Shown here piece after piece: positions 31,318-56,174 of a DNA stretch of 64,000 nucleotides. Origin of the DNA: an uncultured Enterobacteriaceae bacterium. Lineage in GTDB: Bacteria; Myxococcota_A; UBA796; SXON01. The notes below the pieces were generated by a model. The model saw nothing but the letters and a program-made list of their open reading frames with translations, was not told where the DNA came from and did no database searches. Within the stretch, counting starts at the first letter, position 1. Every line of letters begins with the position of its first letter. The DNA lies in contig CAYWGD010000017.1 in NCBI GenBank assembly GCA_964457335.1, positions 11,069 through 75,068 on the forward strand, in the 5' to 3' direction. The translations under genes were made by a program, and so were the position numbers.

Positions 31318-31403
31318 GCGCCCGTCGCGAAGCGACCCGCGATCGGCACCGAAGCGCTGACCGAACGTGACGATTTCGCGGACGGAACCTCGTAAGTTTT
31401 CCG

Positions 31404-31658
31404 GTGTCCGGGCGTTTGACGGAGAGCCGCGCGGCCTTCGGGCGCCGGAGGAGGGACGGGATGTGCCGGGAGAACATGGGGACGGTGGACGAGGGGATAA
31501 CGGAGGCGCTCGAGCGGGTGCTCGACGGGGAGCTCCGCGCGATCGGCGCCGCGATCCAGGCCCTGCCCGAGCAGCACCCGCGCAGGCGCATCCTGTTGGC
31601 GAACTACCGACAGGCGCTCGCGCTGTTGACCGACATGCCGCGCATCCTCGCGCGCTGA
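31404..31658 (+). CDS. Small hypothetical protein (start uncertain; may begin at the internal MGTVDEG)
   Basis: The only open frame in the gap that has high G/C third positions. No recognisable domain. Confidence 0.35.
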
Positions 31659-31665
31659 GCGGTCC

Positions 31666-32730
31666 CTACCTGGGGTCCAGGCGCCACACCGCGGGGGTGA
31701 CGGCGTCGGTCACCCACATCTGCCCGTCGGGGCCGATCTCCACGCCGCGGATGGCGCTCTGGCCGAGCTCGCTGTCGAGCTCCGTCGCCCACTCGCCGTC
31801 GCGGGTGTAGGCCGTGAGCACGCCGGTCGCGTGGTCGGCCACGTAGATGTACGTGTCGTCCATCGCGATGCCGCCGGGCTCCTCGATGTCCTCGACGAGG
31901 ACGCCCCACTCGACGTCCACGAGCTCCGAGTACTCGGCCAGCGGCTCGTTCCGCGCCCTGAGCGCGTCGCCGACCTCGCCCGACGCCGTGTCGAGCCAGA
32001 GGACGCGGCCGTTGCCGGTGTCGGCCACGTAGAGGAGGCCGGTCTCGTGGTCGAGGACCATGTGGCCGGGCACGTTCTCCACGCGGGCCACCTCGAGATC
32101 GGCCACGCGGCGCACGACGCCGTCGGAGTGGTCGTCCTGGCCGACGTCGTGGTCGACCGCGAAGTCGTAGCGCACGATGCTGTCGTTCTTGCCGTCGAAC
32201 ACCCAGTAGACGTTGGCCGTCTCCCAGGCGATCCCGACGCAGTTCGGGCTCTGGTGGAGCATGTCGAGGTGGCTCCCGAGCCCGTACGGGTTCTCCTCCG
32301 CGAAGATGTCGAGGTCCGTCGTCCAGAGCACCGGCCCCATGAAGTCGTTCGGGGGGTACTGGTCGTCGTAGGTGTTGCGCGTCTCGCCGCAGGAGCCGAA
32401 CTGCGTCCCGTCGTCGAAGGAGAGCGCGGCGGCCTCCTCCATGAAGTGGTTCGCCGCGGCGTCCTTGCGGCGGTCGACCGCCTGGTCGTCGGTGCCCGGG
32501 TCGGTGACGATGAACGTGCGGTCGTCCATGCGGTTGGACACCCAGAGGTTCCCGTCGGCGTCGAAGCCGAGGTCCGAGGGGTCCGAGAGCTTGTCGTCCT
32601 CGCCCAGGATGAGGGTCCAGTCCATCTCGCCCCCGCCGACGGGCCCGATCGCCGTCTGGGGGACGGCGGGATCGGGCTTGTCCGCGGGGTCGGTACAGCC
32701 GAAGAGCAGGGCGACGACGAACATGGGCAT
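31666..32730 (-). CDS. NHL-repeat beta-propeller lipoprotein
   Basis: M18 of ORF 31666..32781. Lipobox LFGC. Repeated blades (LWVSNRMDDR, LYVADTGNGRVLWLD, IYVADHATGVLTAY, MWVTDAVTPAVWRL). Confidence 0.75.
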   Translation of the reverse strand: MPMFVVALLFGCTDPADKPDPAVPQTAIGPVGGGEMDWTLILGEDDKLSDPSDLGFDADGNLWVSNRMDDRTFIVTDPGTDDQAVDRRKDAAANHFMEEAAALSFDDGTQFGSCGETRNTYDDQYPPNDFMGPVLWTTDLDIFAEENPYGLGSHLDMLHQSPNCVGIAWETANVYWVFDGKNDSIVRYDFAVDHDVGQDDHSDGVVRRVADLEVARVENVPGHMVLDHETGLLYVADTGNGRVLWLDTASGEVGDALRARNEPLAEYSELVDVEWGVLVEDIEEPGGIAMDDTYIYVADHATGVLTAYTRDGEWATELDSELGQSAIRGVEIGPDGQMWVTDAVTPAVWRLDPR

Positions 32731-32852
32731 TCTCGCGGGCGAGGGTGGGAAGATGTACACGCACGAGCCGGGCTGGCGCACCTGTGATTGCGTCAGGAAA
32801 GCGTGTGACGCGCCCGGTCACGCCCGCCGCGCGCGGCGGTTAGGGCCCCGGA

Positions 32853-33524
32853 ATGTGCGGCCGGATGCGCCTCGACACCGACTGGTCGGAGATCGTCCGC
32901 GTCTTCGACCTCGACCCGGACGACCTCGCCGGCTTCACGCCGCGCTGGAACGTCGCGCCCACCCAGCCCGTGCCGATCATCACCGGCCCGCGCGGGCGGC
33001 GGCACGCGCGCTGGGGGAGCTGGGGGTTCGTGCCCTACTGGGAGCGCGGGGCGAAGCCGAAGCAGCGACCGATCAACGCCAAGTCCGAGACGGTCGCCGA
33101 GAGCGGGATGTTCAAGCACGCCTTCCGCGAGCGGCGCTGCGTGGTGCCGGCGACCGGCTTCTACGAGTGGGAGACGCTGCCCGACGGGAAGCAGCCGTAC
33201 CTGTTCTCGCGGCCGGACCGGGGGCTGATGGCGCTCGCCGGCCTCTGGTCGCGGTGGCGCCCCGAGGGCGGCGAGCCCGTCGACACGTTCTGCGTGCTCA
33301 CGACGACGCCCAACGCGGTGACCGGGCGGGTGCACGACCGCATGCCCGTGGTGCTGCCCGACGCGCGGGCGCTCGACCTCTGGCTCGATCCCGACGCCGA
33401 CCCCTCGCTCGTGGCGCGCGTGCTGCACCCGCCTCCCGACGACCACCTCGACGCGCGCCGCGTCCGCAGGGCCATGAACTCGCCCGCGGTGGACGATCCC
33501 GAGGGCTGCGCCGTCCTCCCGTGA
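32853..33524 (+). CDS. yedK: SOS-response-associated peptidase (SRAP/YedK), abasic-site processing protein
   Basis: N-terminal MCGR. Also NVAPTQ, NAKSET, RCVVPATGFYEW, FCVLTT and HDRMPVVL motifs. Confidence 0.9.
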   Translation: MCGRMRLDTDWSEIVRVFDLDPDDLAGFTPRWNVAPTQPVPIITGPRGRRHARWGSWGFVPYWERGAKPKQRPINAKSETVAESGMFKHAFRERRCVVPATGFYEWETLPDGKQPYLFSRPDRGLMALAGLWSRWRPEGGEPVDTFCVLTTTPNAVTGRVHDRMPVVLPDARALDLWLDPDADPSLVARVLHPPPDDHLDARRVRRAMNSPAVDDPEGCAVLP

Positions 33525-33639
33525 CCACACGCATTGGGCCCCGCTACGGTCTCATGGGAAGCCCGTACGCTCCGCGCTCCGGGCGGCGAGACGCGCGGCG
33601 CTCCACGGTGTAGCCTCGCCTTCCCGGAGGCCCCCCCCG

Positions 33640-36594
33640 ATGCTCGAGAGCGACGTCCTGGAGTCCGCGTACGAGGTCACGCGGCTCGTGAGCCGCGCCC
33701 GCGGCGTCGACGAGGCCTGCGAGAGCATCCTCACCGCGTGCACGACCGTGCTGGGCGCCGATCGCGCGGCCGTGCTCCTCGCCGACGGCGCGGGCGGGAT
33801 GCGCTTCGTGGCGTCCCGCGGGCTCTCCGACACCTACCGGGAGCGCGTGGCGGGGCACTCGCCCTGGCCCCGGGACGCGCGGGACCCGGAGCCCGTGGTG
33901 GTGCCCGACGTGGAGGCCGACGACGGGCTCCGGGAGCTGCGCGCGGCCATCCTCGCGGAGGGCATCCGCGCGCTCGTGTTCGTGCCGCTCGTCCACGACG
34001 ACCGCCTGATCGGCAAGTTCATGCTCTACTACGACGCCCCGCGCGTGGTGGGCCGCGCCGAGCTCACGCTCGCGCGCCTGCTCGCCGCGCAGGTGGCGTT
34101 CGCGATCGCGCGCCTCCGCGCCGAGCGCCGGGCCGACGAGGCGCGCGACGAGCTCGACGCGGTCCTCGCGAGCATCCCCGACGGCATCGTCGTGCACGCG
34201 CGTGACGGCCGCATCGCCTATGCGAACGAGGCCATGCTGCGCCTGCTCCCGGCGGGCCGCGAGCAGCTGGTCGGGGCGCCGGGGGCCACGGTCGCGTCGA
34301 CCATGGAGCTCTTCGACGAGGCGGAGCAGCCGCTCCCGGAGGAGGCGCTGCCCCAGCGGCGGGCGCTCCGGGGCGAGCGCGTCACCCGGGTCCTCGGCAT
34401 CCGCGGTCGGGGCACGGCCGGCCCGCTCCGGTGGGTGCGCGTCAGCTCGCAGCCCGCCGAGACGCCGCGGGGCGCGCGCTTCGCCGTGACCATCGCGCAC
34501 GACGTGACGCAGCTCCGCCGGGACGCCGCGGCGCGGCAGTTCCTGCTCGACGCCGGCGGCGTGCTCGCCTCGTCGCTGGACTACGAGGCCACGCTCGCCG
34601 CGGTCGCGCGCCTCGCGGTGCCCTCGCTCGCGGACTGGTGCGGCGTGTACGTGGTCGGCGAGGACGGCCGGGCCGGCATGCTCGCCGCCGCGCACGTCGA
34701 CCCCGCGCGCGTGGAGCTGGTCCGCCGGCTCGACGAGGCGTACCCGGACGACCCCGCGTCGCCGACCGGCCTGCCCAACGTGGTCCGGACGGGCGAGCCC
34801 GAGGTGTACAACGGCCTCACCGACGACATGTTCGTGGCCACCGCGCGGGACGCCGAGCACCTCCGCCTCCTCCGCGAGCTGCGGCTCTCCGCGGTGATGA
34901 TCGTGCCGATGAAGGCGCGCGGGCGGGTGCTCGGGGTCATCACCCTGGCGAGCTCCGAGTCGGGGCAGGCCTTCGACGCCGAGGATCTGCGCGTGGCGAC
35001 GAAGCTCGCGGACCGCGCCGCCATCGCGATCGACAACGCGCGGCTCTACTCCGACGCCCGGGCGAGCCGCGAGCGCCTCGCGGAGGAGCGCGAGCGCCTC
35101 GGCGTCACGCTCGCCTCCATCGGCGACGCGGTGATCGCGACCGACCGGGACGGCCGCGTGACGCTGATGAACGCGGTCGCGCGGACGCTCACCGGCTGGG
35201 AGCCGGAGGAGGCCGTGGGGCGGCCGCTCTCCGAGGTGTTCGCGATCTTCAGCGAGAAGACCGGTCTCCGGGCGCGGGACCCCGTCGACAAGGTGCTGGA
35301 GACCGGGCGCATCGTCGGGCTCGCGAACCACACGGCGCTGGAGGCGCGCGACGGCACGCGCCGCTCGATCGCCGACAGCGCCGCGCCCATCCGCGCGCGC
35401 GACGGCACCACCGTGGGCGTCGTGCTCGTGTTCCGCGACGTGACGCAGGAGCAGCGGCTGGAGCGCGAGCTCGCGAAGGCGAGCAAGCTCGAGTCGATCG
35501 GGGTCCTCGCCGGCGGCATCGCGCACGACTTCAACAACATCCTCACGTCGATCTCGGCGAACGTCTCGCTCGCGGACCGGCGCGTGGGAGCGGAGCACCC
35601 CGCGCACGACCGCCTCGCGGCGGCGCAGGTCGCCTGCTCGCGCGCGCGGGAGCTCACCCGCCAGCTCCTCACCTTCTCGCGCGGCGGCGCCCCGATCCGC
35701 ACCGCCACGTCGGTCGGGGCGGTCCTGCTGGAGTCCTGCGGCTTCGCGCTGCAGGGCTCGCCGGTGCGCGCCCACTTCGACGTCCCCGAGGACACCTGGC
35801 CGGTGGACGCCGACCCCGGCCAGATCGCGCAGGTGATCCACAACATCGCGCTCAACGCCTCGCAGGCGATGCCCGACGGCGGCAACCTGCGCGTGAGCGT
35901 GACCAACGTGGAGCTCGACGAGACCTCGTGGATCCCGCTCCCGGCCGGCTGCTACGTCCGCGTCGCGCTCGCGGACGACGGCCCGGGCATCGAGCCCGAG
36001 AACGCGGGGCGCGTGTTCGACCCCTTCTTCACGACGAAGCCCAGCGGGAGCGGGCTCGGGCTCGCCACCGCCTACTCGATCGTGAAGCGCCACGACGGCC
36101 ACCTCCTGGTCGACAGCGTGCCGGGGCGGGGCACGACGTTCACCTTGTACCTCCCGGTGGCGGAGGCGATCCCCGCGGTGGAGCCCGTGCCCGAACCCGT
36201 GCCGCCGGGGCGCGGCCGCGTGCTCGTGATGGACGACGACGACGCGATCCGCGACCTCGCCGTGGAGTGCCTCGCCGAGCTCGGCTACGAGTGCGAGGCC
36301 GCCTCGGAGGGCGGCGAGGCCGTCGAGCGCTTCCTCGCGGCCCAGGCGCAGGGCCGGCCCTTCGACGTGGTGATGCTCGACCTCACCGTGCCCGGGGGGA
36401 TGGGCGGCCGGGAGACGCTGCGGCGGCTCCGCGAGCGCTTCCCCGACGTGCGGGCCATCGTGTCGAGCGGCTACTCGAACGACCCGATCATGGCGTGCCA
36501 CGCCGAGCACGGCTTCGCCGGCGTGCTCCAGAAGCCGTTCGTCCTCGACGACATCGCGCGCATCCTCCGGGAGATCCTCCCCGAGCGGGACTGA
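33640..36594 (+). CDS. Hybrid sensor histidine kinase (GAF-PAS-GAF-PAS-HisKA-HATPase-REC)
   Basis: H-box GGIAHDFNNILT; N/G boxes (IALNASQAM, DDGPGI, GSGLGLA); C-terminal receiver VLVMDDDD...DLTVPGGMGG...KPF. Confidence 0.9.
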   Translation: MLESDVLESAYEVTRLVSRARGVDEACESILTACTTVLGADRAAVLLADGAGGMRFVASRGLSDTYRERVAGHSPWPRDARDPEPVVVPDVEADDGLRELRAAILAEGIRALVFVPLVHDDRLIGKFMLYYDAPRVVGRAELTLARLLAAQVAFAIARLRAERRADEARDELDAVLASIPDGIVVHARDGRIAYANEAMLRLLPAGREQLVGAPGATVASTMELFDEAEQPLPEEALPQRRALRGERVTRVLGIRGRGTAGPLRWVRVSSQPAETPRGARFAVTIAHDVTQLRRDAAARQFLLDAGGVLASSLDYEATLAAVARLAVPSLADWCGVYVVGEDGRAGMLAAAHVDPARVELVRRLDEAYPDDPASPTGLPNVVRTGEPEVYNGLTDDMFVATARDAEHLRLLRELRLSAVMIVPMKARGRVLGVITLASSESGQAFDAEDLRVATKLADRAAIAIDNARLYSDARASRERLAEERERLGVTLASIGDAVIATDRDGRVTLMNAVARTLTGWEPEEAVGRPLSEVFAIFSEKTGLRARDPVDKVLETGRIVGLANHTALEARDGTRRSIADSAAPIRARDGTTVGVVLVFRDVTQEQRLERELAKASKLESIGVLAGGIAHDFNNILTSISANVSLADRRVGAEHPAHDRLAAAQVACSRARELTRQLLTFSRGGAPIRTATSVGAVLLESCGFALQGSPVRAHFDVPEDTWPVDADPGQIAQVIHNIALNASQAMPDGGNLRVSVTNVELDETSWIPLPAGCYVRVALADDGPGIEPENAGRVFDPFFTTKPSGSGLGLATAYSIVKRHDGHLLVDSVPGRGTTFTLYLPVAEAIPAVEPVPEPVPPGRGRVLVMDDDDAIRDLAVECLAELGYECEAASEGGEAVERFLAAQAQGRPFDVVMLDLTVPGGMGGRETLRRLRERFPDVRAIVSSGYSNDPIMACHAEHGFAGVLQKPFVLDDIARILREILPERD

Positions 36595-36610
36595 GCCTCG
36601 CCGCGGGTCT

Positions 36611-36649
36611 GGGGGGGCGTTGCGGGGGGGGCACCCCCCGCCCCAAGAA
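36611..36649 (+). repeat. G/C-run repeat family, copy R2
   Basis: GGGGGGGCGTTGCGGGGGGGGCaCCCCCCGCCCCAAGAA, 17 nt after the kinase stop. Confidence 0.6.
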
Positions 36650-36661
36650 CATGCGGATCGT

Positions 36662-36677
36662 TGGCACGCTTCCTGCT
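36662..36677 (+). promoter_or_regulatory. Sigma-54 (-24/-12) promoter
   Basis: TGGCACGcttcCTGCT against the consensus TGGCACG-N4-TTGCW: the GG and GC elements are correctly spaced and 12 of 16 positions match. It lies upstream of the kinase/NtrC-type operon. Confidence 0.55.
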
Positions 36678-36954
36678 TGGCGGAGGGCGGAGGAGGCCTC
36701 GACGCGTGCCTGGCTGCTCGCCCCCTCGTGGCGTGGACGGGCGACGCACCGGTCGAAGGCCCGACGTGTCGCGCGTTCAGGAGCCCCCCCGTGCGCGGTG
36801 CCGGGGGGGCACCTCTCTTCGGGGGCCCTCTCGCCGTGATCCGAGGGGGCCCTCGCTGCGCCCGTCGGGACAGGGTGCCGCGGGGCGAAGTGCCTCGCCG
36901 GGGCAGAATGCCCCGCCCCGCCGGCGCGCGCCGGTCGCCGGATAAGGCGGCGCC

Positions 36955-38405
36955 ATGCGGTTCGCGCGCAAGCTCGCCCTCGCGCTCTGGCTGGGCGTGT
37001 GCCTCATCTACGTCGCCAACGCGGCGCAGCGCGTGGTGGTGGAGGTGCGGTCGTTCGAGGCCGACATGCGTCGCGACCACGAGGTCATGGGGCGGGGGCT
37101 CGCGCCGGCCACGGTCCTGATCTGGACCGCGGAGGGCCAGCAGCGCGCGATCGCCGTGGTCGAGCAGACCAACCGCAACGAGAGCCGCATCACGATCCGA
37201 TGGGTCGACCTCGCGGCGCCGGCCGGCCACCCCGACCGGCCCGCGGCCCCGGCCTCGGTCCTCGGGGCGGTTGCCGACGGCGCGACGGTCAGCTGGGCGG
37301 ACCGCCTCGGCGCCAACACGCTCCACACCTACGTCCCGCTGCGCGTCGAGGGCGTGTGGCGCGGCGCGTTGGAGTTCACGGAGTCCCTCGACGCCGAGCA
37401 GGCCTACATCCGGACGAGTATCAAGCGCATGCTCGTCACGACGGCCGGCATGGCCCTCGTGTCCGGCGCGCTCACGCTGTTCCTCGGCATCCGCTTCGTC
37501 GGGCGGCCGATCCGGCAGCTCGTGGAGAAGGCGCGGCGGGTCGGCGCCGGGGACTTCGGGGGCGCGCTCGAGCTCGAGCAGGCCGACGAGATCGGCGAGC
37601 TCGCGCGGGAGATGAACCTCATGTCGGACCGCCTGTCGGACGCGCGCGGGCAGCTCGAGGCGGAGACGGCCGCGCGCATCCAGGCGATGGAGCACCTGCG
37701 GCACGCGGACCGGCTCATGACGGTCGGGCGGCTCTCCTCGGGGCTCGCCCACGAGATCGGCACGCCGCTCAACGTCATCACCCAGCGGGCCAAGATGGTC
37801 GCGCGCGGGGAGGTGGACGGCGAGGAGGCCCGCTCGAACGCGCGGATCATCGCGGAGCAGAGCGAGCGCATCACCCACATCGTGCGGCAGCTCTTGGACT
37901 TCTCGCGGCGGCGGCCGCCGGAGCCCGCGCCGGTCGACCTCGTGGGGGTGGTGGAGCGGGTGTTCCTCCTCCTGACGCCGCTCGCGCGCAACCTGCGCGT
38001 GCGCCTCGAGCTCGGCGACCGCCCTGAGGGGGTGGTGCGCGCCTCGGCCGACCCCGTGCAGATCCAGCAGGTGTGCACCAACCTCGTGCTCAACGCGGTG
38101 CAGGCGATGGCGTCGGGCGGCGTCGTGACGGTGTCGTTCGCCCGGGAGCGCCGCGCGCGCGGCGCCGATCCCGCGCGGGACTGGGTGGTCGTCGACGTGC
38201 GGGACGAGGGGCCGGGCATCGACGCCGCGCACCTGCCGCACCTGTTCGATCCCTTCTTCACGACGAAGGGCATCGGCGAGGGCACGGGCCTCGGGCTCTC
38301 GGTCGCGTGGGGCATCGTCACGGAGCACGGCGGCTGGATCGAGGTGGAGAGCGGGCCGGGCGGCGGCGCGCGGTTCCGGGTGTTCCTGCCGGAAGCGGAG
38401 GGCTG

Positions 38406-38406
<1 letters not shown>
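36955..38406 (+). CDS. Sensor histidine kinase (2 TM, HAMP, HisKA, HATPase)
   Basis: [23 protein letters not shown]...[12 protein letters not shown]; H-box [12 protein letters not shown]; G boxes DEGPGI and GTGLGLS. Confidence 0.85.
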
Positions 38407-39794
<1,388 letters not shown>

Positions 39795-39798
39795 CCCG

Positions 39799-40296
39799 CT
39801 ACACGACCGAGGCCCCGGCCGCCGCCACCGCCGCCAGGAAGCCGGGCACGTCGGCCGGGGTGACGTAGACGCGCCGCTCCCCACGCACCCACACGCCCTC
39901 GTAGGCCGTGGCGGCGGCGTGGTAGCGCCCCTCGGCGTCCACGAAGAGCCCGAGGCAGAACGGCGGGACCGCCGTGCCGCTCAGCTTCCACCCGGAGAGC
40001 GGGCCGGTCGACACGCGCGCGCCGCGGAGCGGGACCCGCACGGCCGCGAAGTGCGCGGGGACGACGAGCACGTCGCCCTCGACGCGGTAGCGGAGCGGGC
40101 GGCGGGCCAGGGTCGCCACCCACGCGATCAGGAGGCAGATGCCGGCCGAGGTCGCGAGGTAGAGCACGAGCGACGATCGCGGCCCCGTGGCGACCACCGG
40201 CAACAGCGCGAGGAACTGGACCGCGAACAGCCCCCCGAGCGCGGCGAACAGCGCGTAGGCCGACTTCGGGAGGGGGACGGAGGGGAACTCGGGCAT
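39799..40296 (-). CDS. Small membrane protein (two TM helices plus a soluble C-terminal domain, possibly bacterial PH-like)
   Basis: Two hydrophobic helices followed by RRPLRYRVEGDVLVVP.... The domain assignment is tentative. Confidence 0.5.
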   Translation of the reverse strand: MPEFPSVPLPKSAYALFAALGGLFAVQFLALLPVVATGPRSSLVLYLATSAGICLLIAWVATLARRPLRYRVEGDVLVVPAHFAAVRVPLRGARVSTGPLSGWKLSGTAVPPFCLGLFVDAEGRYHAAATAYEGVWVRGERRVYVTPADVPGFLAAVAAAGASVV

Positions 40297-40470
40297 CGGG
40301 GGGGTGGACCTCCCTATCCGCTTGAGCCCGGCGTCGGTTAGCTCCGCCGCATGCTGCTCGTCCTGACTGCGTCCGTGCTGGCGGTGGCGCGGTCAGCGGG
40401 CCCAGAGCCTTGCGACGCTCCGTCTTGACCCCCGGATGCCCGTTCGTGTAGAACCCGGGCTCCGGAGTAC

Positions 40471-41739
40471 ATGATGTCTATGGAAACCCTCAAGGCCAAG
40501 CTGCTGGCGATTCAGGCCCGCATCCCGATGGTGCGAGGCCGCGGTGAGGAGGCCACGAAGCAGGCGCTCGTGCTGCCGATGCTCGATGCCCTTGGCTATG
40601 ACATCTGGAACCCGCACGAGGTCTGCCCCGAGTTCGAGGCGGACTTCGCCGTGAAGAAGCAGGGCCAGAAGGAGAAGGTTGACCTTGCGATCTTGCTCAA
40701 CGGAGAGGCCCGGGCGTTCCTGGAGGTGAAGCCGGTCGACGAGCCCCTTGATGGCCACCAGGGGCAGCTCGCCCGCTACTTCAACGGCGCCCCGACGGTC
40801 TCGTTGGGGGTGCTCACCAACGGCGTCGAGTACCGCTTCTACACAGACACGGGGGAGCCCAACATGCTCGACGCGGCACCCTTCTTCGTGTTGCGCCTCG
40901 ACAGCATCGATCTGGGGCTCGACGTTCTGGCGCGGTTCCACCGCTCGGCGTTCTCGCCCAGCGCGATCCGCGAGTACGCTACGGAGCTCAACTACACCGC
41001 CCGCATGACCGCGCTGCTCCGCCAAGAGCTCGACCTCCGGAACCGAGAGCCCTCGGAGGCGCTGGTCCGGTGGGTGCTCGGATCAGAGGGCATGTACGAC
41101 GGGCGCGTCACCGCCGGCGTGGTCGAGCGCTTCCGCCCCATCGTGAAGAACGCTGTGCAGATCGTGTTGCGAGACATCGTGCGGCGCTCCGTCGCCGCGC
41201 TCGACGAAGGAGTGACCGCTCCCCAGGTCGAGAGCGCGCCGCCGGCCCTGCAGCCCGCGATCCAGGCGTCGGCGACGGCGACGCCTGCGGAGGCGGCGCC
41301 CGACGGGGGCGGCAAGGTGATCGTGACCACGGAGGCCGAGCTTGCTGCGTACGCCATCCTGCGGGAGCAATTTCAGAGCAGCGCCCTCGCGGGCGCGCGC
41401 ATCTACGACGCGACAGCGAAGAAGGACGTCGCCATCGAGATCGCGCATAAGGACACAACCGGGTACTTCGGCGTGTACTTCAACAAGCCTGCCTGGTGGT
41501 TCGCGCGCCTCCAGATGGACAGCAAGCAGCCGTGGGTGGCCTTCAACATCGACGCTGCCTCGGCGCCGTCACTGCTCCCCTCGGGCTTCTCGCTCCTCCC
41601 ACCGAGCGCGTTCGCTGACGTTCGGGTGGCCATCCGTAGCCCGGACGACCTCCACGCATTGAATCGGATCGCTTTCGCCGCCATGAGCCGCACGCTCGAG
41701 GAGCGAAACCGCGGTCGGGGAGAGGGCGACGGCGCGTAG
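40471..41739 (+). CDS. Stand-alone PD-(D/E)xK nuclease-fold protein of the type I restriction HsdR N-terminal (HSDR_N_2) type, with an uncharacterised C-terminal half
   Basis: EATKQALVLPMLDALGYD, then D-x11-E-x-K (VDLAILLNGEARAFLEVKP), then LTNGVEYRFY. There is no helicase or methylase partner. Third codon positions are visibly less G/C-biased than in flanking genes. Confidence 0.75.
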   Translation: MMSMETLKAKLLAIQARIPMVRGRGEEATKQALVLPMLDALGYDIWNPHEVCPEFEADFAVKKQGQKEKVDLAILLNGEARAFLEVKPVDEPLDGHQGQLARYFNGAPTVSLGVLTNGVEYRFYTDTGEPNMLDAAPFFVLRLDSIDLGLDVLARFHRSAFSPSAIREYATELNYTARMTALLRQELDLRNREPSEALVRWVLGSEGMYDGRVTAGVVERFRPIVKNAVQIVLRDIVRRSVAALDEGVTAPQVESAPPALQPAIQASATATPAEAAPDGGGKVIVTTEAELAAYAILREQFQSSALAGARIYDATAKKDVAIEIAHKDTTGYFGVYFNKPAWWFARLQMDSKQPWVAFNIDAASAPSLLPSGFSLLPPSAFADVRVAIRSPDDLHALNRIAFAAMSRTLEERNRGRGEGDGA

Positions 41740-41817
41740 GACTTCGATCGCGCCCTCGTCCTATGGGCTCTCGTGCACGCGGGTCGGCTCACCACCGTTG
41801 TCCGCTCGGAGGCGTGA

Positions 41818-42384
41818 ATGGTTGATCGCCGAGGATTCCTGGTTGCCGCCGCCGTCGTCGGGATTGCTGGGCCTGCGTACGGCGGGAGTGACGACGGGAG
41901 CGCGCGAGCAGGTCGCGGAGCGGGAACGCTCCTTGTCCGGGTCCTGAACGCAGCGGCCGTCGCAGCCAGCGCCAGCCCCCTCAAGGCGAAGATCGGAGCC
42001 TTCCTGGGATTCGACCTGGAGCGCGAGGTACTCAATGAGATCGTCGATACCCTCCAGGACGAGCTGCGGGCCCGAGTGGGCCTCACCATCCAGGCGCGCG
42101 TCGTCGAGTCGCGGGAGGCCGCGTGGCGCCAGTGCGACCTGCAGGCGGGGCGGTTCGTGCCGGCAGGGGCCCCTGCCGGCGGCCAGGCGCTCGAGGTCGT
42201 GATCGAGGGGCTGCCGAGCGTGTCCGACGAGGACGCCGCGCTTCGGCCCTTCTTGCGCCGGCTCCTCGCCCCGTTCCACGAGTACGTGGCCGCCAACATC
42301 ATGGCGCAGCTCGCGGAGTACGGCGGCGAGGCGGTCTTCGGGTTCGAGGGCGGAGAGCCGAGGGGCCGCCGGGCGGAGCAATAG
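41818..42384 (+). CDS. Hypothetical protein with a twin-arginine-like signal
   Basis: MVDRRGFLVAAAVVGIAGPAYG. Atypical codons (gtt, gat, cga, gga, att, agt). No domain recognised. Confidence 0.5.
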   Translation: MVDRRGFLVAAAVVGIAGPAYGGSDDGSARAGRGAGTLLVRVLNAAAVAASASPLKAKIGAFLGFDLEREVLNEIVDTLQDELRARVGLTIQARVVESREAAWRQCDLQAGRFVPAGAPAGGQALEVVIEGLPSVSDEDAALRPFLRRLLAPFHEYVAANIMAQLAEYGGEAVFGFEGGEPRGRRAEQ

Positions 42385-42426
42385 GCGACCGGGCGAAGTC
42401 GGTTAAACGACTGGGCTTTTTTCCCC

Positions 42427-42467
42427 ACACCTTCCCGACCTGTACACCTTCGTCGTGTTGGTCGCGC
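42427..42467. repeat. Direct repeat DR-A: degenerate, frameshifted copy of the pyk 3' end (att-like)
   Basis: acaccttcccgacctgtacaccttcgtcgtgttggtcgcgc compared with 45349-45390: 39 of 42 positions identical, 2 substitutions and 1 deletion. Confidence 0.75.
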
Positions 42468-42482
42468 ATCGATTCAACGTCG

Positions 42483-42514
42483 GGTATTGCGGGCGGTATC
42501 AGTGTCGGTATCCG
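42483..42514 (+). repeat. Three phased GGTAT-N-N-G repeats just inside the left islet end
   Basis: GGTATTGcgggcGGTATCAGtgtcGGTATCCG, with repeat starts at 42483, 42495 and 42507 (exact 12-bp phasing). Confidence 0.45.
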
Positions 42515-42653
42515 CGGAAGTGCTCGTTCCCCGGACCCCGGCGAGGACCACATCCTCCTCCTCGAACAGACGCGACGCGGATCAGCGCCCCCTGCTCGCA
42601 GCCGACGAGCGCGAGGGAGAATGCGAGGACCATCGGCCGCTCCGCGGGGAGGC

Positions 42654-43511
42654 TCATACGTCACCGGGTCGCGGGGATTCAGCAAGGCCGAGGGCGCCCC
42701 GGAGGATTGCGAGCCGCTCCGTCTCGGCCTTGGTGACCTTCCCGTCGGCGGCGGCCAGCGCGGCGAGCTCCCCGTACACCGCCTCTCGCGCCTCCCGCGG
42801 CGACTCGGAGATCGCTTTCGCGTAGTCCGTGGCGGAAAACACGTCGGGCGCGACGGTATCGAAGAGGCGGATCACAACGTCCCGGCTCACCATCGCGGGA
42901 ACCGTGTCGGGGAAGAAGCGCTCGACGATGCCGACGGCGGCGAGCCGCTCCTCGTCGCGCACCCGGCGATCGGCCAACGCGACGTACTTCAGCAGGTGCA
43001 CCACCACGGCGAGCTTTGCGCGCGCCTCGTCTCGCCCAGCTTGCTCCGCTGCCTCGGCCTTGAACTTGGCGGCCAGCCGCTCCCGCTCGGCCGCATCACG
43101 CTCGCGGGCCGCCTGCAGATGCTCCTCCTTCAGGCCGCCCGCTCGCTCCTGCTGTGCACCCCACTGGGCTTCCTGCGCCGCCGCAGCGCGCTGCGCCTCC
43201 GTCGCCGTCCGCTGGGTTTCCTCCGCGCGGCGCTCCGCCGCAACCTTCTCGCGCGCCGTGGCCGCGCGCTGCGCCTCAACGCGCCGTTCGGCCGCGGTCC
43301 GCTCGCGCTCGGCCAGCTCGCTCCACCCGCACGCTCGGCAGGTGAGCGGGTTGTCCTTGTAGCGGCGGGTGGGTCCGCCGCCCTTTCGCTGGTGGAGGTG
43401 GAACGCGCGCTGCTTCCCGCACTGAGGGCAGCGTACGGCCCCCGCGTTCATGCCGAGCAGGAGCACGAGCAGGAACAGAGGGACCCCCACCAGAATCCCG
43501 GACCAGTCCAC
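42654..43511 (-). CDS. Membrane-anchored Zn-ribbon, charged coiled-coil and TerB-like domain protein
   Basis: GTG start at 43511, which includes the TM helix ILVGVPLFLLVLLLG (alternative ATG at 43451). CPQCG-x19-CRACG. About 110 aa of ERR/AEA-rich helix. C-terminal TerB-like repeats (VALADRRVRDEERLAAV; AAADGKVTKAETERLAIL). Confidence 0.7.
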   Translation of the reverse strand: MDWSGILVGVPLFLLVLLLGMNAGAVRCPQCGKQRAFHLHQRKGGGPTRRYKDNPLTCRACGWSELAERERTAAERRVEAQRAATAREKVAAERRAEETQRTATEAQRAAAAQEAQWGAQQERAGGLKEEHLQAARERDAAERERLAAKFKAEAAEQAGRDEARAKLAVVVHLLKYVALADRRVRDEERLAAVGIVERFFPDTVPAMVSRDVVIRLFDTVAPDVFSATDYAKAISESPREAREAVYGELAALAAADGKVTKAETERLAILRGALGLAESPRPGDV

Positions 43512-43589
43512 GCGCGATCTCCCGTGCGGTCGTGATGCTCGCTCAACCCGCTCGCGCTGTGCAACCCCGCCCGGTGGACGGAGTCGTCC

Positions 43590-43931
43590 ATGCCGCCTCC
43601 CGCGCTCGGCCCAGTCCGCCCAACCGAGCCCGACGACGCCCCGCGGCTCGACTCCCTCGTCCGCGAGCTCGTGGACGCCTACCGCTCCCAGGCCGACGCC
43701 CAGGACCGGCGGCACCAGGAGCTCCTCGACTCGGTGCGCACGCGGGACGAGCAGTACGCAGCCCGGGAGGCGAAGCGGGACCAACAGCACAGCGCGCTCG
43801 TCGCGTCGGTGAACGGGCTGACGGTGAGTGTCGGGGCGCTCGCCGACAAGGTCCCCGGTCGGCGGGAGCTCTGGGCCGGGGCCCCGTCGGCGCGAGTCGG
43901 CGGGGCCTTCGTGCGTCGACGGCTGGCGTAG
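43590..43931 (+). CDS. Small coiled-coil hypothetical protein
   Basis: High G/C third positions in this frame. Divergent from the TerB gene with a 78-nt spacer. No domain recognised. Confidence 0.45.
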   Translation: MPPPALGPVRPTEPDDAPRLDSLVRELVDAYRSQADAQDRRHQELLDSVRTRDEQYAAREAKRDQQHSALVASVNGLTVSVGALADKVPGRRELWAGAPSARVGGAFVRRRLA

Positions 43932-43977
43932 AGTTTCGGGCGCGGACTTCATCGGAGGGGTACTTGATGCGTCTGTA

Positions 43978-44006
43978 GTAGAAAACCAGCGATAACGCGG
44001 TTTTAC
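43978..44006 (+). other. Imperfect hairpin in an unusually AT-rich spacer (possible terminator, operator or small RNA)
   Basis: GTAGAAAACCAGCG-ATAA-CGCGGTTTTAC: 11 bp with three single-nt bulges. The surrounding 130 nt (43932-44061) are the most AT-rich non-coding stretch I noticed. Confidence 0.3.
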
Positions 44007-44061
44007 GGTTGTTCGTGTAGCATCCAGCCAGCGGCGGATCTCAACCCCCCGTCGCCTTGGA

Positions 44062-44352
44062 GTGACCATGCTGAACGAGCTTCAGCCCATCCACGATTAC
44101 CTCGTCGCCTGCGGCTTCAGCGCCCGCGACCAGGGCGACCACCTGCTCGTCGTCCGCGCCGCAACGCTGGTGGACGACCACCACGCGTCCGGCCTCGTCC
44201 GCGTGGAGGTGCGCGAGGGCGCGCCGTGGGTCGAGGGCGCGACCTTGCCTGCCGAGGACGATCTCCTGAAGGTCCTCCGCGAGGCCTTTCCCGGCGTCCG
44301 GCGCGACGAGGCGCACTGGGACCTCTGCAGGGCCCCGCCGGCAGAGCGGTGA
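44062..44352 (+). CDS. Small acidic hypothetical protein
   Basis: GGAG 8 nt upstream of the ATG and high G/C third positions. Convergent with the NDT/TIR-like gene. Confidence 0.5.
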   Translation: MTMLNELQPIHDYLVACGFSARDQGDHLLVVRAATLVDDHHASGLVRVEVREGAPWVEGATLPAEDDLLKVLREAFPGVRRDEAHWDLCRAPPAER

Positions 44353-44437
44353 GGACGCCGGGCTTGCGCTTGTGGGCGACCGCCGCGGTAAGCCAACCCT
44401 CGGCCGGCAGACGCTGCCCCTCCTAGGCCACCTGCCG

Positions 44438-45157
44438 CTACTCCGCGGCTTCCTCGCCCGTCTCTCCCGTGCCGTCCTTCGGGAGCTGCTCGTACAGGGG
44501 CCCAGGAGGCGACGGTGGGGCATCGGCGGGACGGACCAGGTAGTAGCGCGTTGCCTTGCGCGCCCCCGTGGTGCGGAGGACCCCGGCCGCGGCCAGGGGG
44601 GCCACGACGAGCTGCGCCACGGGCACGCCCACCTGGAGAATCTGGGCGATCGCCTGCATCGTCAGCCCGTCGTCGGTGGTCTCCATGAACGCGCGGAACT
44701 GGCGGCGGAGCTCGTCGAGGTGCTGCTCGATCGAGACGACCTGCGTTCGGCGCGGGTACCGCTGCTCGATGAGCGTGGCGAGCTTGCGGCCGAGCTCGTC
44801 GTAGGAGGCGTACTCGATGCGGTCCAGGCCCCGGAGGTCGGAGGGAACCTCCTTGATCTCCGTCTTCTCGGGGTTCAGGCAGATGTACCAGCTGTCGCTG
44901 TGGGCCATGGCGAAGCCCAGTTCCAGCGTCACGTTGGGGTTCCAGCCGGAGATGTCGAACAGCGAGAAGTCAGACGACCTGATGTAGCTGATGATCTTCT
45001 GCATGATGTGCATGTTCGTGATCTTCTCGTCGGCGAAGATGAACCGCACGTCGTACTGCTTCTCGAGGTCACTGAAGACCCGCCTGTAGTCGGCTTTCGC
45101 GTAGGTCTTGTAGGAGTAGGCAACGAAGACCTGCTTCTTGAGCGGCATGACAGACAT
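44438..45157 (-). CDS. Nucleoside 2-deoxyribosyltransferase/TIR-like (flavodoxin-fold) domain fused to a C-terminal winged-helix domain
   Basis: Start at M55 of ORF 44438..45319 (alternative M58 at 45148). Strand 1 is KQVFVAYSY. The motif SDFSLFDISGWNPNVTLELGFAMAHSDSWYICL matches the aD-x-v-x-a-D-x-s-G...N/D-x-G/N-T/V-x-x-E-I/L-G-Y/F-A signature of the NDT-like fold. The C-terminus (LTMQAIAQILQVGVPVAQLVVAPLAAAGVLRTTGARKATRYYL) looks like a winged helix. Confidence 0.7.
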   Translation of the reverse strand: MSVMPLKKQVFVAYSYKTYAKADYRRVFSDLEKQYDVRFIFADEKITNMHIMQKIISYIRSSDFSLFDISGWNPNVTLELGFAMAHSDSWYICLNPEKTEIKEVPSDLRGLDRIEYASYDELGRKLATLIEQRYPRRTQVVSIEQHLDELRRQFRAFMETTDDGLTMQAIAQILQVGVPVAQLVVAPLAAAGVLRTTGARKATRYYLVRPADAPPSPPGPLYEQLPKDGTGETGEEAAE

Positions 45158-45243
45158 GCGCCGTTGATTACGCGACGCGAGCGCCCGGAGCAAGCGGGTG
45201 CTCGGCCGCAGATCCCCGGGCGCGCTCCCCGTGCCAGCCCGCC

Positions 45244-45333
45244 CCGGTATCAGAAGTATCAGAAGCGCCCGGAAACCCCCTGATACCGGCGGGTACCAGC
45301 GCAGGACCGGATCGTTCACGATCCGCTGATAAG
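45244..45333. promoter_or_regulatory. Repeat cluster inside the right islet end and upstream of the NDT/TIR-like gene
   Basis: A perfect 10-bp inverted repeat CCGGTATCAG (45244-45253) / CTGATACCGG (45280-45289). A tandem GTATCAGAA x2 (45247, 45256). A palindrome GGATCGttcaCGATCC (45309-45324). CTGATAAG at 45326-45333. Confidence 0.45.
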
Positions 45334-45346
45334 CGTGGTTTTCGGC

Positions 45347-46801
45347 CTACACCTTCCCCACCGTGTACACCTTCATCGTGTTGGTCGCGCCCCGCATCGG
45401 CGTGTTCCCCGCGAGCGCGACGACCTCCTGCCCGCGCGAGATGAGCCCGCGGTCGAGGAGGATGGACTCGCCGAGGGCGATGAGCTCGTCGGTGGACGCC
45501 ACGGTGGGCGCGCGGACGGGCGTCACGCCCCACGCGAGCGCGAGGCGGTCGTAGGTGGTCTCGTTCGGCGTGAGCGCGAAGATCGGGCCCGGGGGGCGCG
45601 ACTTCGAGGCGTAGAGCGCGGTGGCGCCCGACCAGGTGAAGACCACGAGCGGCCGCGGGATCTCGCGGACCGCGTAGCAGGCGGAGCGCACCACGGTGTG
45701 CGACGGGCCCGCGAGCACGGAGACCTCCTCGAACGGCTGGCGCATCCAGCGGCTCGACTCGACCTCGCGCGCGATGCGGTCCATCGTCTCGACCGCCTTG
45801 ATGGGGTACCGCCCGCTCGCCGTCTCGCCGGAGAGCATGATGGCGTCGGTGCCGTCGACGATCGCGTTGGCCACGTCGGTGGCCTCGGCGCGCGTGGGGC
45901 GGGGGCTCCGCTCCATGGAGTCAAGCATCTGCGTGGCCGTGATGACGAGCACGCCCGCCCGGTTGGCCGCCGCGATGAGCTCCTTCTGGATGACGGGGAC
46001 GCGCTCCAGGCTCATCTCCACGCCCAGGTCTCCGCGCGCGACCATGATCCCCTCGACCACGCCGAGGATCTCCTGGATGTTCGCGACGGCCTGCGGCATC
46101 TCGATCTTCGCGATGATGGGCAGGTCGGGGACCTCGAGCCGGCGCAGGTGCTCCCGAAGCGTGAGCACGTCGGTGGCCTCGCGCACGAACGAGAGCGCGA
46201 CGTAGTCCACGCCGGCGCGCACCCCGACCTCGAGGTCCGCGATGTCCTGCTCGGTGAGGCAGGGCGCGCTGACGTTCACGCCCGGGAAGTTCATGCCCTT
46301 GTGGTTGCCGAGCGGGCCGCCGTCCTCGATGCGGATGTCGACCTCGGCGGGCGAGACGCTCCGGCGCACCTCGGTCACGTGGCCGGAGAGCGCGCCGTCG
46401 GCGAACAGCACGAGGTCGCCGGCCGTCACGTCGCCGGCCATGCCCGTGTAGGTGGTGCCGATGCGGTTGCCCGCCTGGACGTAGTCCTCGTCCATCACGA
46501 CGGTGAGGATGTCGCCCGTCTTGAGCTGGAGCGGCGTGGGGATGGTCCCCGTGCGGATCTTGGGGCCCTGGAGGTCGAGGAGGATGCCGGCCGGGCGGTC
46601 GAGGCGGGTGGCGCTGCGGCGCACGCGCGCGACGAACTCGCGGATGGCCTCCGCGGTGGCGTGCGAGCAGTTGATGCGGAACACGTCCACCCCCGCGCCC
46701 AGGAGCGCGAGGATCTGGTCGGGTTCCCGCGAGGCGGGGCCGAGCGTGGCGACGATCTTGGTGCGGCGGGGGGGCATGCGTCCTCGTACGTTCCGGGTCA
46801 C
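45347..46801 (-). CDS. pyk: Pyruvate kinase
   Basis: RRTKIVATLGPAS, FRINCSH, IIAKIE, MVARGDLGVE and ATQMLDSM motifs. The more canonical start is M9 at 46777 (MPPRRTKIV). Confidence 0.95.
   Translation of the reverse strand: MTRNVRGRMPPRRTKIVATLGPASREPDQILALLGAGVDVFRINCSHATAEAIREFVARVRRSATRLDRPAGILLDLQGPKIRTGTIPTPLQLKTGDILTVVMDEDYVQAGNRIGTTYTGMAGDVTAGDLVLFADGALSGHVTEVRRSVSPAEVDIRIEDGGPLGNHKGMNFPGVNVSAPCLTEQDIADLEVGVRAGVDYVALSFVREATDVLTLREHLRRLEVPDLPIIAKIEMPQAVANIQEILGVVEGIMVARGDLGVEMSLERVPVIQKELIAAANRAGVLVITATQMLDSMERSPRPTRAEATDVANAIVDGTDAIMLSGETASGRYPIKAVETMDRIAREVESSRWMRQPFEEVSVLAGPSHTVVRSACYAVREIPRPLVVFTWSGATALYASKSRPPGPIFALTPNETTYDRLALAWGVTPVRAPTVASTDELIALGESILLDRGLISRGQEVVALAGNTPMRGATNTMKVYTVGKV
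45349..45390. repeat. Direct repeat DR-B: the functional 3' end of pyk (att-like)
   Basis: acaccttccccaccgtgtacaccttcatcgtgttggtcgcgc. Its antisense encodes ...ATNTMKVYTVGKV-stop. Confidence 0.75.
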
Positions 46802-46811
46802 TTATCGGATC

Positions 46812-48455
46812 GTGCGCACGCCGATCGCCCCTTCGCCGCATCCCGCCGCCGATCTCGCCGAGGTCGTCGAGGGGGCGCTCACGCGCGAGGGGCACCTCTT
46901 CAGCGCGGGGGAGCACGTCGCGCTCCGCCGCCTGCTCGGCCTCGACGACGAGGCCCGCGAGCTCTGGGCCCGGCTCTCCTTGCGGACGGGCAGCGGCGAG
47001 GGGGAGGGGCCCCCCGTGTTCCGCGTCGCGTCGCTCCGCTACGACCTCGACGTCCGCGGGGCCGTCGCGCGCCTCGGCGACGCGGGGCTGGCGCACGTCG
47101 CGATCCCGGACGACCGCTGCGCGCCCGCGTTCGACGTGCCCGCGCTCAAGGCCGCGTGCGCCCGCCTGGGGCTCCCCCTCGGCGGCGCGCGAGCGGCCCT
47201 CGTGAAGCGGCTGGTGGGCCGGCGCTGGGTGGACGAGCCCGTCGTGATGCTCGCCCACACGGGGCTCGTGCGGCGCTGCGAGCTCCTCTACTTCCAGAGC
47301 CCCTACGTCGACCGCACCTCGCTGGTGGTCGAGCGCCTCGGGCAGCTGCGGTGGCCCGCGTACACGCCGACGGGGGGCGTCGGGCTCTTCCCGCACCGCG
47401 CCGCGCTCCGGGCCTACGAGCGCGCCCGCGCCGCCGCGTGGACGGACGACGGCGAGCCCTTGCGCCTCGCGCTCGCCGGGCCGCCGGAGGTCGGCCTCTC
47501 GCCCTGGCGCCGCGCGGTCGAGGCCGTGCTCGCCGCGGACCCCGACGCCGACGTGCTCGGGAAGCTGGCGGGTGCGGGTGCGCCCGTGCGGCCGTCGTGG
47601 GCGTTGCGGCTCGAGCGCGAGGGGCGCGCGCGGGAGGCGCTCGCGGTGTGCCGCGCCGCCACGCGGGACGACGACGTGGACGGCGCCACGGCGGTCGCGC
47701 TGGAGCGCACGGGGCGGCGGCTCGCGCGCGCGCTCGGCGAGGGCTGGGCGCCCCGGACGCCGCTGCGGTCGGCTGCGGTGCGACGGCTGCGCCTCGCGGC
47801 GGGCCCGAAGGGCGGGGCGCGACCGACGTGGGTGGTCGACGGCGAGGCGCTCCCGGTCGAGGCCGCCGTCCTGCGCGCGCTCGCGCGGGCGGACCGGCGC
47901 GCGCTGCACGCCGAGAACTGGCTCTGGACCTCGCTCTACGCGCTCGTGTTCCGGGACCTCTACTTCCTGCCCGTGCCCGGCATGCTCCCGACGGCGCGGC
48001 GGGACGGGCCGCTCGACGTCGGCACGCCCGGCTTCTACGGGCGCCGCCGGGAGGTCGTCGAGGCCCGGCTCGGAGCGCTCGCGGCCGACGGACCCGCGCG
48101 ATTCGTGGAGGGATGGAGCGGCGAGCGGCTCGCGGGGCTCGGCGCGGCCGAGGTCGCCCGCTCGGAGTGCGCCTCGATCCCCGGGAAGACCGCAGCGGCG
48201 GTGCTCGGGCGGCTCGCGCGGGAGGGCTGGGCCGCCGCGCGGGGGCTGCCCGACCTCTACATTTTTCCGGGCCCGCCGATCCGGATCGAGGGCGCGGTGC
48301 CCGCGCGCGTCGACGATCGCGACCTGCTCGTGGAGATCAAGGGACCGACGGACGCGCTGCGCGACGAGCAGCGCGTCTGGCACGCGCGGCTCCTCGACGA
48401 GGGAATTCCCGTGGAGTTGTGGGAGGTTGCGGGGCAGATCCGAGAATCCGCTTGA
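46812..48455 (+). CDS. FAN1-like structure-specific nuclease (SAP, TPR-like and VRR-NUC domains)
   Basis: SAP-like VPALKAACARLGLPLGGARAALVKRLV. C-terminal VRR-NUC with GLPDLYIF...LVEIKGPTDALRDEQRVW (D...E-x-K). The start is uncertain: GTG at 46812 or ATG at 46776. Confidence 0.8.
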   Translation: MRTPIAPSPHPAADLAEVVEGALTREGHLFSAGEHVALRRLLGLDDEARELWARLSLRTGSGEGEGPPVFRVASLRYDLDVRGAVARLGDAGLAHVAIPDDRCAPAFDVPALKAACARLGLPLGGARAALVKRLVGRRWVDEPVVMLAHTGLVRRCELLYFQSPYVDRTSLVVERLGQLRWPAYTPTGGVGLFPHRAALRAYERARAAAWTDDGEPLRLALAGPPEVGLSPWRRAVEAVLAADPDADVLGKLAGAGAPVRPSWALRLEREGRAREALAVCRAATRDDDVDGATAVALERTGRRLARALGEGWAPRTPLRSAAVRRLRLAAGPKGGARPTWVVDGEALPVEAAVLRALARADRRALHAENWLWTSLYALVFRDLYFLPVPGMLPTARRDGPLDVGTPGFYGRRREVVEARLGALAADGPARFVEGWSGERLAGLGAAEVARSECASIPGKTAAAVLGRLAREGWAAARGLPDLYIFPGPPIRIEGAVPARVDDRDLLVEIKGPTDALRDEQRVWHARLLDEGIPVELWEVAGQIRESA

Positions 48456-55984: not shown

Positions 55985-56085
55985 GGCAGGCCGTGCCGCG
56001 CTGGTGCCGGCCCCGGTCTTCAAAACCGGTCGGGGCGCCTCGAGAGGGGCCGCCCGGTGGGTTCGATTCCCATGGCCTGCCGCCA
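55985..56085 (+). tRNA. selC: tRNA-Sec (anticodon UCA)
   Basis: 8-bp acceptor stem GGCAGGCC/GGCCTGCC, discriminator G and an encoded CCA. Anticodon stem CCGGT/ACCGG with loop CT-TCA-AA. About 27-nt variable arm. 5-bp T stem GTGGG/CCCAT with loop TTCGATT. This is the 8/5 geometry typical of bacterial tRNA-Sec. Confidence 0.8.
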
Positions 56086-56174
56086 CTTCTCCCCGAATCC
56101 ACCGATCGACCATCGGTGACGATCTCCGTCGGCTCCAGCAAGTGGCCGGCGTCGGCGGTGACTACCGCACTGAC

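Follow-up and report, generated by a model that had tools for sequence, protein, structure and literature searches.

The duplicated 3' end of pyk

The stretch of DNA analysed here, hereafter the window, is a 64-kb segment of an uncultured Myxococcota genome, in which a 2.9-kb islet (42468-45346) lies directly downstream of the pyruvate kinase gene pyk, between two copies of a direct repeat that corresponds to the end of that gene. The genes around the islet are labelled A to G. The features that delimit the islet are the following:

45347-46777, minus strand: pyk (pyruvate kinase), the putative target gene, intact (PK barrel E 2e-108, PK_C E 3e-26)
45349-45390 (45347-45390 with the full pyk stop), minus strand: proximal repeat copy, ACACCTTCCCCACCGTGTACACCTTCATCGTGTTGGTCGCGC; the functional pyk end, attR-like, which restores KVYTVGKV*
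42427-42467, minus strand: distal repeat copy, ACACCTTCCCGACCTGTACACCTTCGTCGTGTTGGTCGCGC; a displaced, frameshifted, non-coding pyk tail, attL-like or an attI at which two stacked elements meet
42397-42412: hairpin resembling a terminator, which closes gene C and is followed by a T-run that reaches 42422, shortly ahead of the distal copy

Direct reading of the sequence bears out the 42-nt repeat of the antisense pyk end that the initial annotation had described: the copies agree at 39 of 42 positions (93%), and alignment likewise returns the two substitutions (45359 C versus 42437 G; 45375 A versus 42452 G) and the 1-nt deletion (45363 G) reported for the frameshifted distal copy. The repeat does contain the 3' end of the gene, as proposed; rather than the last 14 codons plus stop, however, the proximal copy comprises the last 13 codons, two bases of the preceding codon and one base of the stop codon, the latter being located at 45347-45349. 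The C-terminus of pyk, ...GATNTMKVYTVGKV (NTMKVYTVGKV), is the same as that of the relatives, and no mosaic or donor signal was found in the 3' part of the gene. The translation of the distal copy reads ...ATNTTKVYRSGRCGEK..., out of frame, and this copy is intergenic, being positioned between the terminator-like hairpin of gene C and gene D. Only shadow open reading frames (ORFs), without a coding-type GC content at third codon positions (GC3), overlap it, and it does not lie inside a functional gene. It had been regarded as a dead, displaced gene end; displaced and non-coding it is, but its differences need not represent decay, since the attachment site of an incoming element (attP) is free of frame constraint upstream of the crossover.

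On its inner side the repeat stops sharply (42467/45390), while on its outer side the stop codon (TAG versus TGG) and a T-rich stretch prolong a weak match by about 10 nt. The chance level of the repeat core was gauged by 100 dinucleotide-preserving shuffles: with up to three mismatches allowed, the 26-nt core has exactly two sites in the 64 kb and none in any of the shuffles, and local alignment of one junction against the other scores 67-69, as compared to a shuffle maximum of 24-30 (z ~20). No third copy of the pyk tail is present anywhere in the window, no further significant repeat joins any pair of junctions or spacers at the locus, and no terminal inverted repeats were found between the islet ends. 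Two candidate extensions of the repeat were discarded. A distal copy reaching further into pyk appeared plausible in comparison with the relative L091, with a best P=0.011 among eight targets that was not significant after correction, while for a third copy at the A-B border (40297-40470) the alignment scores did not exceed the shuffle means.

As the source is metagenome-assembled, and such contigs can be chimeric at repeats, the repeat pair might be an assembly artefact, or simply a chance match. Against this, two independent Logan assemblies (contigs L001 and L002) present the same gene layout and the same repeat pair, with both copies spanned, and because the arrangement is identical in both, an assembly artefact is very unlikely. 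In combination with the shuffling and alignment results, this leaves chance and artefact with a negligible probability, and both are excluded for practical purposes. The repeat pair is, hence, real and non-random.

A 5-kb block in a variable pyk-purK interval

Beyond the distal copy, three further genes bear on the extent of the inserted DNA:

39799-40296, minus strand: gene A, bPH-like, native GC3 (0.988); outer limit of the inserted block, as set by the orthologue in the closest relative
40471-41739, plus strand: gene B, 422 aa, HSDR_N / 'type IV restriction endonuclease'-like (phrog_4225, 5e-75); outside the repeat pair
41818-42384, plus strand: gene C, 188 aa, with a signal resembling that of twin-arginine translocation (Tat-like) and no family; outside the repeat pair

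The four genes of the islet, a set drawn by GC3 framing, exhibit the weaker third-position bias that was initially ascribed to them, with GC3 values of 0.864 (D), 0.912 (E), 0.918 (F) and 0.929 (G) against a native window mean of 0.96 (standard deviation 0.03) and values of 0.992 in pyk and 0.988 in gene A. The genes of the left flank, B (0.887) and C (0.852), are as atypical as those of the islet. Composition consequently sets the islet apart from pyk and gene A, as expected, but not from its left neighbour, and the compositional unit is ~40.3-45.35 kb rather than 42.4-45.4 kb. The islet was also said to hold the most AT-rich spacers; its low GC content is evident, yet the lowest-GC 300-nt windows of the 64 kb are found within gene G (44.7-45.1 kb) rather than in any spacer, and where gene B begins (~40.4 kb). 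The tetranucleotide deviation is modest (z ~2), and an Rfam scan of 40-46 kb revealed nothing meaningful.

Approximately 165 loci of relatives were compared, comprising 80 species-representative and 80 metagenome loci around pyk relatives together with contigs from the 90% cluster that includes the pyk of the window. Among relatives with flanking sequence, the closest (contigs L087-L090), whose pyk belongs to that cluster and displays 85% nucleotide identity, has the order pyk, 43 nt, gene A orthologue, SRAP, purK, purE. Because pyk adjoins the gene A orthologue in these contigs, the lineage-specific block is 40297-45346, a 5.05-kb segment of low GC3 with the distal repeat copy inside it, and not 42427-45390 as first delimited. 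Likewise, no locus showed the empty site that had been predicted, in which the sequence left of 42427 would directly follow pyk; L087-L090 show the pyk-A adjacency instead. Besides this block between pyk and gene A, the window exceeds L087-L090 by a 6.2-kb two-component-system block (33640-39794), which is of native composition and has no repeats, and by an NHL-repeat gene. Genes B, C, D, E, F and G are all absent downstream of pyk in the relatives' loci, and the four islet genes are thus not a shared feature of the relatives at this site.

The order thiolase, SAP/VRR-NUC gene, pyk is kept upstream in relatives. Downstream, synteny with the closest species representatives resumes at purK (~31.3 kb in the window), and the 1.5-5.2 kb between pyk and this point are lineage-specific in those representatives: either they add nothing, or they contain a 128-aa ORF, a 576-aa membrane protein, a KaiC-like ATPase or a lipoprotein, every variant being followed by a DUF21/CBS gene (DUF21/CBS/CorC) that is not in the window. 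In the window itself, the interval is occupied by the NHL-repeat gene, SRAP, the two-component block and the 5-kb foreign block. Since its content differs in each lineage sampled, the pyk-purK interval (31318-45346) is a flexible, patchwork hot spot. Furthermore, contigs L087-L089 (8381-9868, compared with 46797-48455 of the window) possess an FG-GAP gene upstream of pyk and not the SAP/VRR-NUC gene, and both sides of pyk are therefore rearranged between close lineages. Several public metagenome-assembled genome records of close relatives (L009, L016, L020, L037 and others) are titled 'Klebsiella pneumoniae', 'Enterobacterales' or 'Cognaticolwellia', and look mislabelled.

The locus could also have arisen with no site-specific recombinase at all. 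The pyk tail would then have been duplicated by slippage or unequal crossing-over, or generated by an illegitimate join, and turnover at the hot spot would subsequently have added the foreign genes. In the illegitimate-join variant (homology-facilitated illegitimate recombination), an incoming fragment would have recombined with pyk by homology at one end and been spliced illegitimately into the tail at the other. The patchwork of insertions and deletions in each lineage, including the repeat-less 6.2-kb block, fits such a history, as do the solitary occurrence of genes G and B elsewhere, with neither recombinases nor att-like repeats nearby, and the finding that none of the scanned predicted genes of the window is a recombinase. 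A precedent is offered by one relative (L019, pyk 74% identical), which has a second, 100% identical copy of the final 47 nt of pyk (1665-1910); the duplication runs on for ~43 nt downstream with four mismatches (~90 nt in total), and its copies, 157 nt apart, enclose ~67 nt and no cargo. None of the other relatives' loci has a duplicated pyk tail, and the one in L019 differs in kind from that of the window. While it suggests that tail duplications arise without a visible element, it could equally be the scar of an almost wholly deleted element at the same site, and we consider it to be either this or a slippage duplication. A second repeated module occurs further along the same contig (1928 / 2218). 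Other observations fit a recombinase-free origin poorly: the duplicated stretch coincides with the end of the gene and pyk is left intact, illegitimate joins usually delete rather than duplicate recipient DNA, the 3' part of pyk is devoid of a mosaic signal, and the clusters of the motif CGGTATCAG described below would go unexplained. We thus view a recombinase-free origin as unlikely, although by no means far-fetched.

Islet genes, motif clusters and the search for a recombinase

The interior of the islet contains four genes and, close to its ends, two clusters of a short motif:

42654-43511, minus strand: gene D, 285 aa, TerB domain (PF05099, 9.6e-8)
43590-43931, plus strand: gene E, 113 aa, charged/helical, no family assigned
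44062-44352, plus strand: gene F, 96 aa, no family matched
44438-45157, minus strand: gene G, 239 aa, predicted N-terminal TIR-like/DNPH1-like fold and C-terminal winged helix
42483-42514, plus strand: left cluster, GGTATTGC / GGTATCAG / GGTATCCG, three direct GGTAT-type copies at 12-nt spacing; candidate arm-type sites
45245-45299, no strand assigned: right cluster, CGGTATCAG, AGTATCAG, inverted CGGTATCAG and GGTACCAG; candidate arm-type sites or operator of the gene G promoter

The proteins of the islet and its flanks were screened with Pfam, PHROGs, NCBIfam and PADLOC, while the recombinase scan covered ~52 predicted genes over the whole window. These screens revealed no recombinase or transposase among D-G, and no recombinase, relaxase or transfer-gene family in either D-G or B-C; the earlier statement that the islet encodes neither a recombinase nor a transposase holds, and extends to the scanned genes of the window. 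Islet DNA and gene G have no match in phage and plasmid records, nor does gene G have a hit in viral contigs.

The reading frames of D, E, F and G are intact, with coding-type GC3, and the islet genes are singletons at 90% identity. Gene D is composed of an N-terminal membrane helix, a CxxC zinc ribbon (a profile hint), an Ala/Glu/Arg-rich, coiled-coil-like middle and the C-terminal TerB domain. Its family is rare: an exhaustive HMMER search yielded 14 representatives at E<1e-10, all of them distant, and a k-mer search returned no homologues. In PHROGs, genes D and F matched nothing, gene E had a single marginal match to a family of unknown function (E=0.02), and gene G had only hits of unknown function. 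A single-sequence structure model of gene F (predicted local distance difference test, pLDDT, 45) was unusable. A small ORF at 42499-42657 (minus strand, 52 aa) was not counted as a gene, its GC3 of 0.74 not being coding-like; it has a lipobox-like LVGC, starts on an ATGA overlap with the gene D stop and ends inside the left motif cluster.

Gene G matches PF10137, the CAP12-type TIR family of the pyrimidine cyclase system for antiphage resistance (Pycsar), at 3e-5 and 24.4 bits, under the curated cut-off of 24.7, and matches the PADLOC TIR effectors only weakly. An AlphaFold model from 42 homologues (pLDDT 84) predicts a flavodoxin-like fold for the N-terminal domain, which appears nearest to DNPH1 / nucleoside 2-deoxyribosyltransferase (template modelling score ~0.7 on target), and a winged helix at the C-terminus. 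The family comprises 529 hits, 55-67% identical across Leptospira, Verrucomicrobiota, Proteobacteria and Myxococcota, with 39 invariant columns. In six contexts (among loci L083-L086, L174 and L175), the homologues are solitary among unrelated or hypothetical genes, and neither a recombinase nor D, E or F is located near them. A CAP12-type TIR effector of Pycsar or of a cyclic-oligonucleotide-based antiphage signalling system (CBASS) would adjoin a nucleotide cyclase, and no cyclase was found in the islet or beside the gene G homologues examined. The cargo of the islet plausibly consists of stress or defence genes and matches no recognised system. In L085, and also in L086, the gene G homologue is situated between the arms of a perfect 11-nt inverted repeat, GTTATGCGTAC / GTACGCATAAC; in L085 these are at ~7970-8000, overlapping the ribosome-binding region, and at 8655-8675, just after the stop, and they could be regulatory or cassette-like.

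The neighbouring gene B is a full-length match to the phage endonuclease family phrog_4225, with 668 homologues. Distant B-like genes occur in temperate-phage lysogeny modules; in the one phage inspected, Streptococcus phage IPP25 (L176), a distant B relative has the integrase as its immediate neighbour on one side and the repressor operon on the other. In the contexts examined, D, E, F or C never co-occur with G or B homologues elsewhere.

The left motif cluster lies 16-47 nt inside the distal copy and the right one 48-103 nt inside the pyk stop. The latter is made up of two direct, one inverted and one degenerate copy, and holds a perfect 10-nt inverted repeat, CCGGTATCAG...CTGATACCGG. All three sites of the 9-mer CGGTATCAG in the 64 kb, and all four of GTATCAG, fall within the two clusters, which, when joined through the repeat core, would flank a reconstructed attP at ~-100..-48 and +16..+47. 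This layout is suggestive of the arm-type sites of a tyrosine-recombinase attP. The notion that the GGTATCAG motif is a conserved operator of the gene G family was dropped, the motif being absent upstream of the gene G homologues examined.

Such a layout raises the prospect that the islet is still active, that is, a minimal, satellite-like element with a complete attP (the 42-bp core and arm-type sites) that is mobilised in trans by a helper integrase encoded elsewhere. The good preservation of both copies (93%), the clusters of one rare 9-mer that the two inner ends share, and the intact frames of D, E, F and G with their coding-type GC3 would all suit this scenario. Conversely, no helper was identified, no second islet or att occurrence was found, the genes are singletons at 90% identity, and there is no evidence of a circular form; we consider present activity of this kind to be improbable. 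Improbable to a similar degree is the more general proposal that the pyk 3' end serves as the chromosomal attachment site (attB) of an unsampled family of Myxococcota integrative elements, with the islet as a trans-moved, recombinase-free, satellite-like cassette with CGGTATCAG arm sites. If true, small stress or defence genes would spread into a hot spot at a glycolytic gene by satellite-like movement in trans.

The only tRNA gene in the window, a tRNA-Sec (anticodon TCA; 55985-56085), is found immediately upstream of, and slightly overlapping, the predicted start of a CHASE/PAS/GGDEF/EAL gene (56004-58883).

Proposed integration at the pyk 3' end and comparison with known elements

The locus is best explained, on present evidence, as the att-type footprint of an integration event in the pyk 3' end. 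On balance, we lean towards the islet being the decayed relic of a site-specific element in this gene end, of the type known as a cis-mobilizable element (CIME), and the recombinase behind it would most likely have been a tyrosine recombinase. According to this explanation, the attP of the incoming element would have carried a ~42-bp look-alike of the pyk tail, and recombination would have rebuilt the pyk end exactly (the proximal copy) while leaving at the opposite end a hybrid that no longer codes (the distal copy). The element would then have lost its recombinase and kept its att sites, giving rise to a CIME-like islet that might move only with a cognate integrase from elsewhere in the genome. 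An older foreign remnant, B-C (40297-42426), would adjoin it in tandem, with its outer att site gone, and the distal copy would represent the attI junction of two successive insertions at one site, D-G being the later arrival and B-C the att-proximal stump of the older element. Because the A-B border has no third copy of the pyk tail and close B homologues are solitary, the outer end of the older piece may have been deleted, or B-C may have arrived in another way. On this view, the 5-kb block is a composite, and the borders first drawn for the islet enclose its younger half.

Several observations favour integration. The repeat, which recurs in two assemblies, is unique in the window and sharply bounded on its inner side, and its distal copy is intergenic; the cargo is foreign in GC3 and absent from the relatives' loci; and the motif clusters have a layout like that of arm-type sites. 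The duplicated stretch is exactly the 3' end of a gene, and the pyk C-terminus is as in relatives; the pyk-A adjacency in L087-L090 constitutes an empty site for 40297-45346; the pyk-purK interval differs from lineage to lineage, as expected of an insertion hot spot; and the B-like gene beside an integrase in a phage lysogeny module fits B-C as an att-proximal stump.

Other observations speak against it. No integrase is present among the ~52 genes scanned in the window, and the relatives' loci contain neither an integrase-bearing element nor other cargo flanked by the pyk tail; viral contigs gave no match to the pyk-tail core. None of the relatives' loci offers an empty site for the islet alone (pyk-C-B-A), and the far side of B-C showed no third copy of the pyk tail when junctions and spacers were aligned. 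Elsewhere, the islet genes are not found as a set, G and B homologues being solitary and without recombinases, and the close homologues of B in particular are solitary chromosomal genes in unrelated contexts. Finally, the motif enrichment was noticed post hoc and is partly explained by the lower GC content of the islet, and the overall k-mer sharing of the two islet ends is not above background. The attL/attR footprint originally proposed is thus upheld as regards the repeat, the restored pyk and the foreign cargo, but no independent integrase-bearing occupant of the site came to light in the relatives' loci or in viral contigs. Since no such use of the site was found, we infer, rather than observe, site-specific recombination as the cause of the repeat; the same holds for the order of accretion, for any part that the CGGTATCAG clusters play and for mobility today.

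Among the known classes of element, the CIMEs come closest. The islet has flanking att-like repeats (the 39/42 repeat of the pyk tail, with no further copy in the window), and integration and transfer genes are absent from both D-G and B-C. The definition of CIMEs, and the tandem accretion of decayed CIMEs at the 3' end of a gene, are documented (PMC5704250). An empty site that corresponds to the repeat boundaries was not found, the site in L087-L090 being empty for 40297-45346 and not for 42468-45346. The islet shows no trace of a transposon or insertion sequence (transposase, terminal inverted repeats or a short target-site duplication), and to our knowledge a 42-bp duplication far exceeds known target-site duplications; nor did PHROGs reveal the structural, replication or packaging genes of a prophage or satellite.

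In Streptococcus thermophilus, elements related to the integrative and conjugative elements (ICEs) ICESt1 and ICESt3 reportedly occupy the fda 3' end, in work by Pavlovic et al. from 2004. As with the CIMEs at the fda 3' end, the direct repeats of the islet hold the end of a protein-coding glycolytic gene that is reconstituted, integration and transfer genes are absent, and the islet is in tandem with a decayed segment, as in the three-step accretion model. In contrast to them, the islet has no known or found ICE, integrative and mobilizable element or integrase with the same att, its older neighbour lacks an outer att site, its host is an uncultured Myxococcota genome, and its mobilisation is only hypothetical. 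With the tyrosine-recombinase islands and prophages (lambda-type attP) at the 3' ends of tRNA, transfer-messenger RNA and protein genes, the islet shares repeats of the target end, a foreign composition, cargo, and short motifs on both arms at arm-site distances; unlike these, it is very small (2.9 kb), has no integrase of its own beside the att site, the defining gene of that class, and arm binding is only presumed. Recombinase-free hot-spot islets are similar in having different accessory genes per lineage, here the restriction-like B and the TIR-like G, both solitary elsewhere, but usually have no direct repeats of a neighbouring gene, whereas the islet has a repeat of 42 bp.

A single literature search listed no paper that connects a pyruvate kinase gene with an attB, a negative that carries little weight, and pyk is possibly a hitherto undescribed integration target. 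The islet reveals no new mechanism, a CIME-like islet being of a known kind. For annotation purposes, a size of 5 kb rather than 2.9 kb should be assigned to the variable block, and everything between pyk and purK should be regarded as a flexible hot spot. If integration is indeed the correct explanation, pyk would become a further protein-coding gene known to offer its 3' end as an attachment site, and the locus would provide an example, from a poorly studied myxobacterial lineage, of how a core gene accretes accessory and defence genes that stay in place after the machinery that brought them has been lost.

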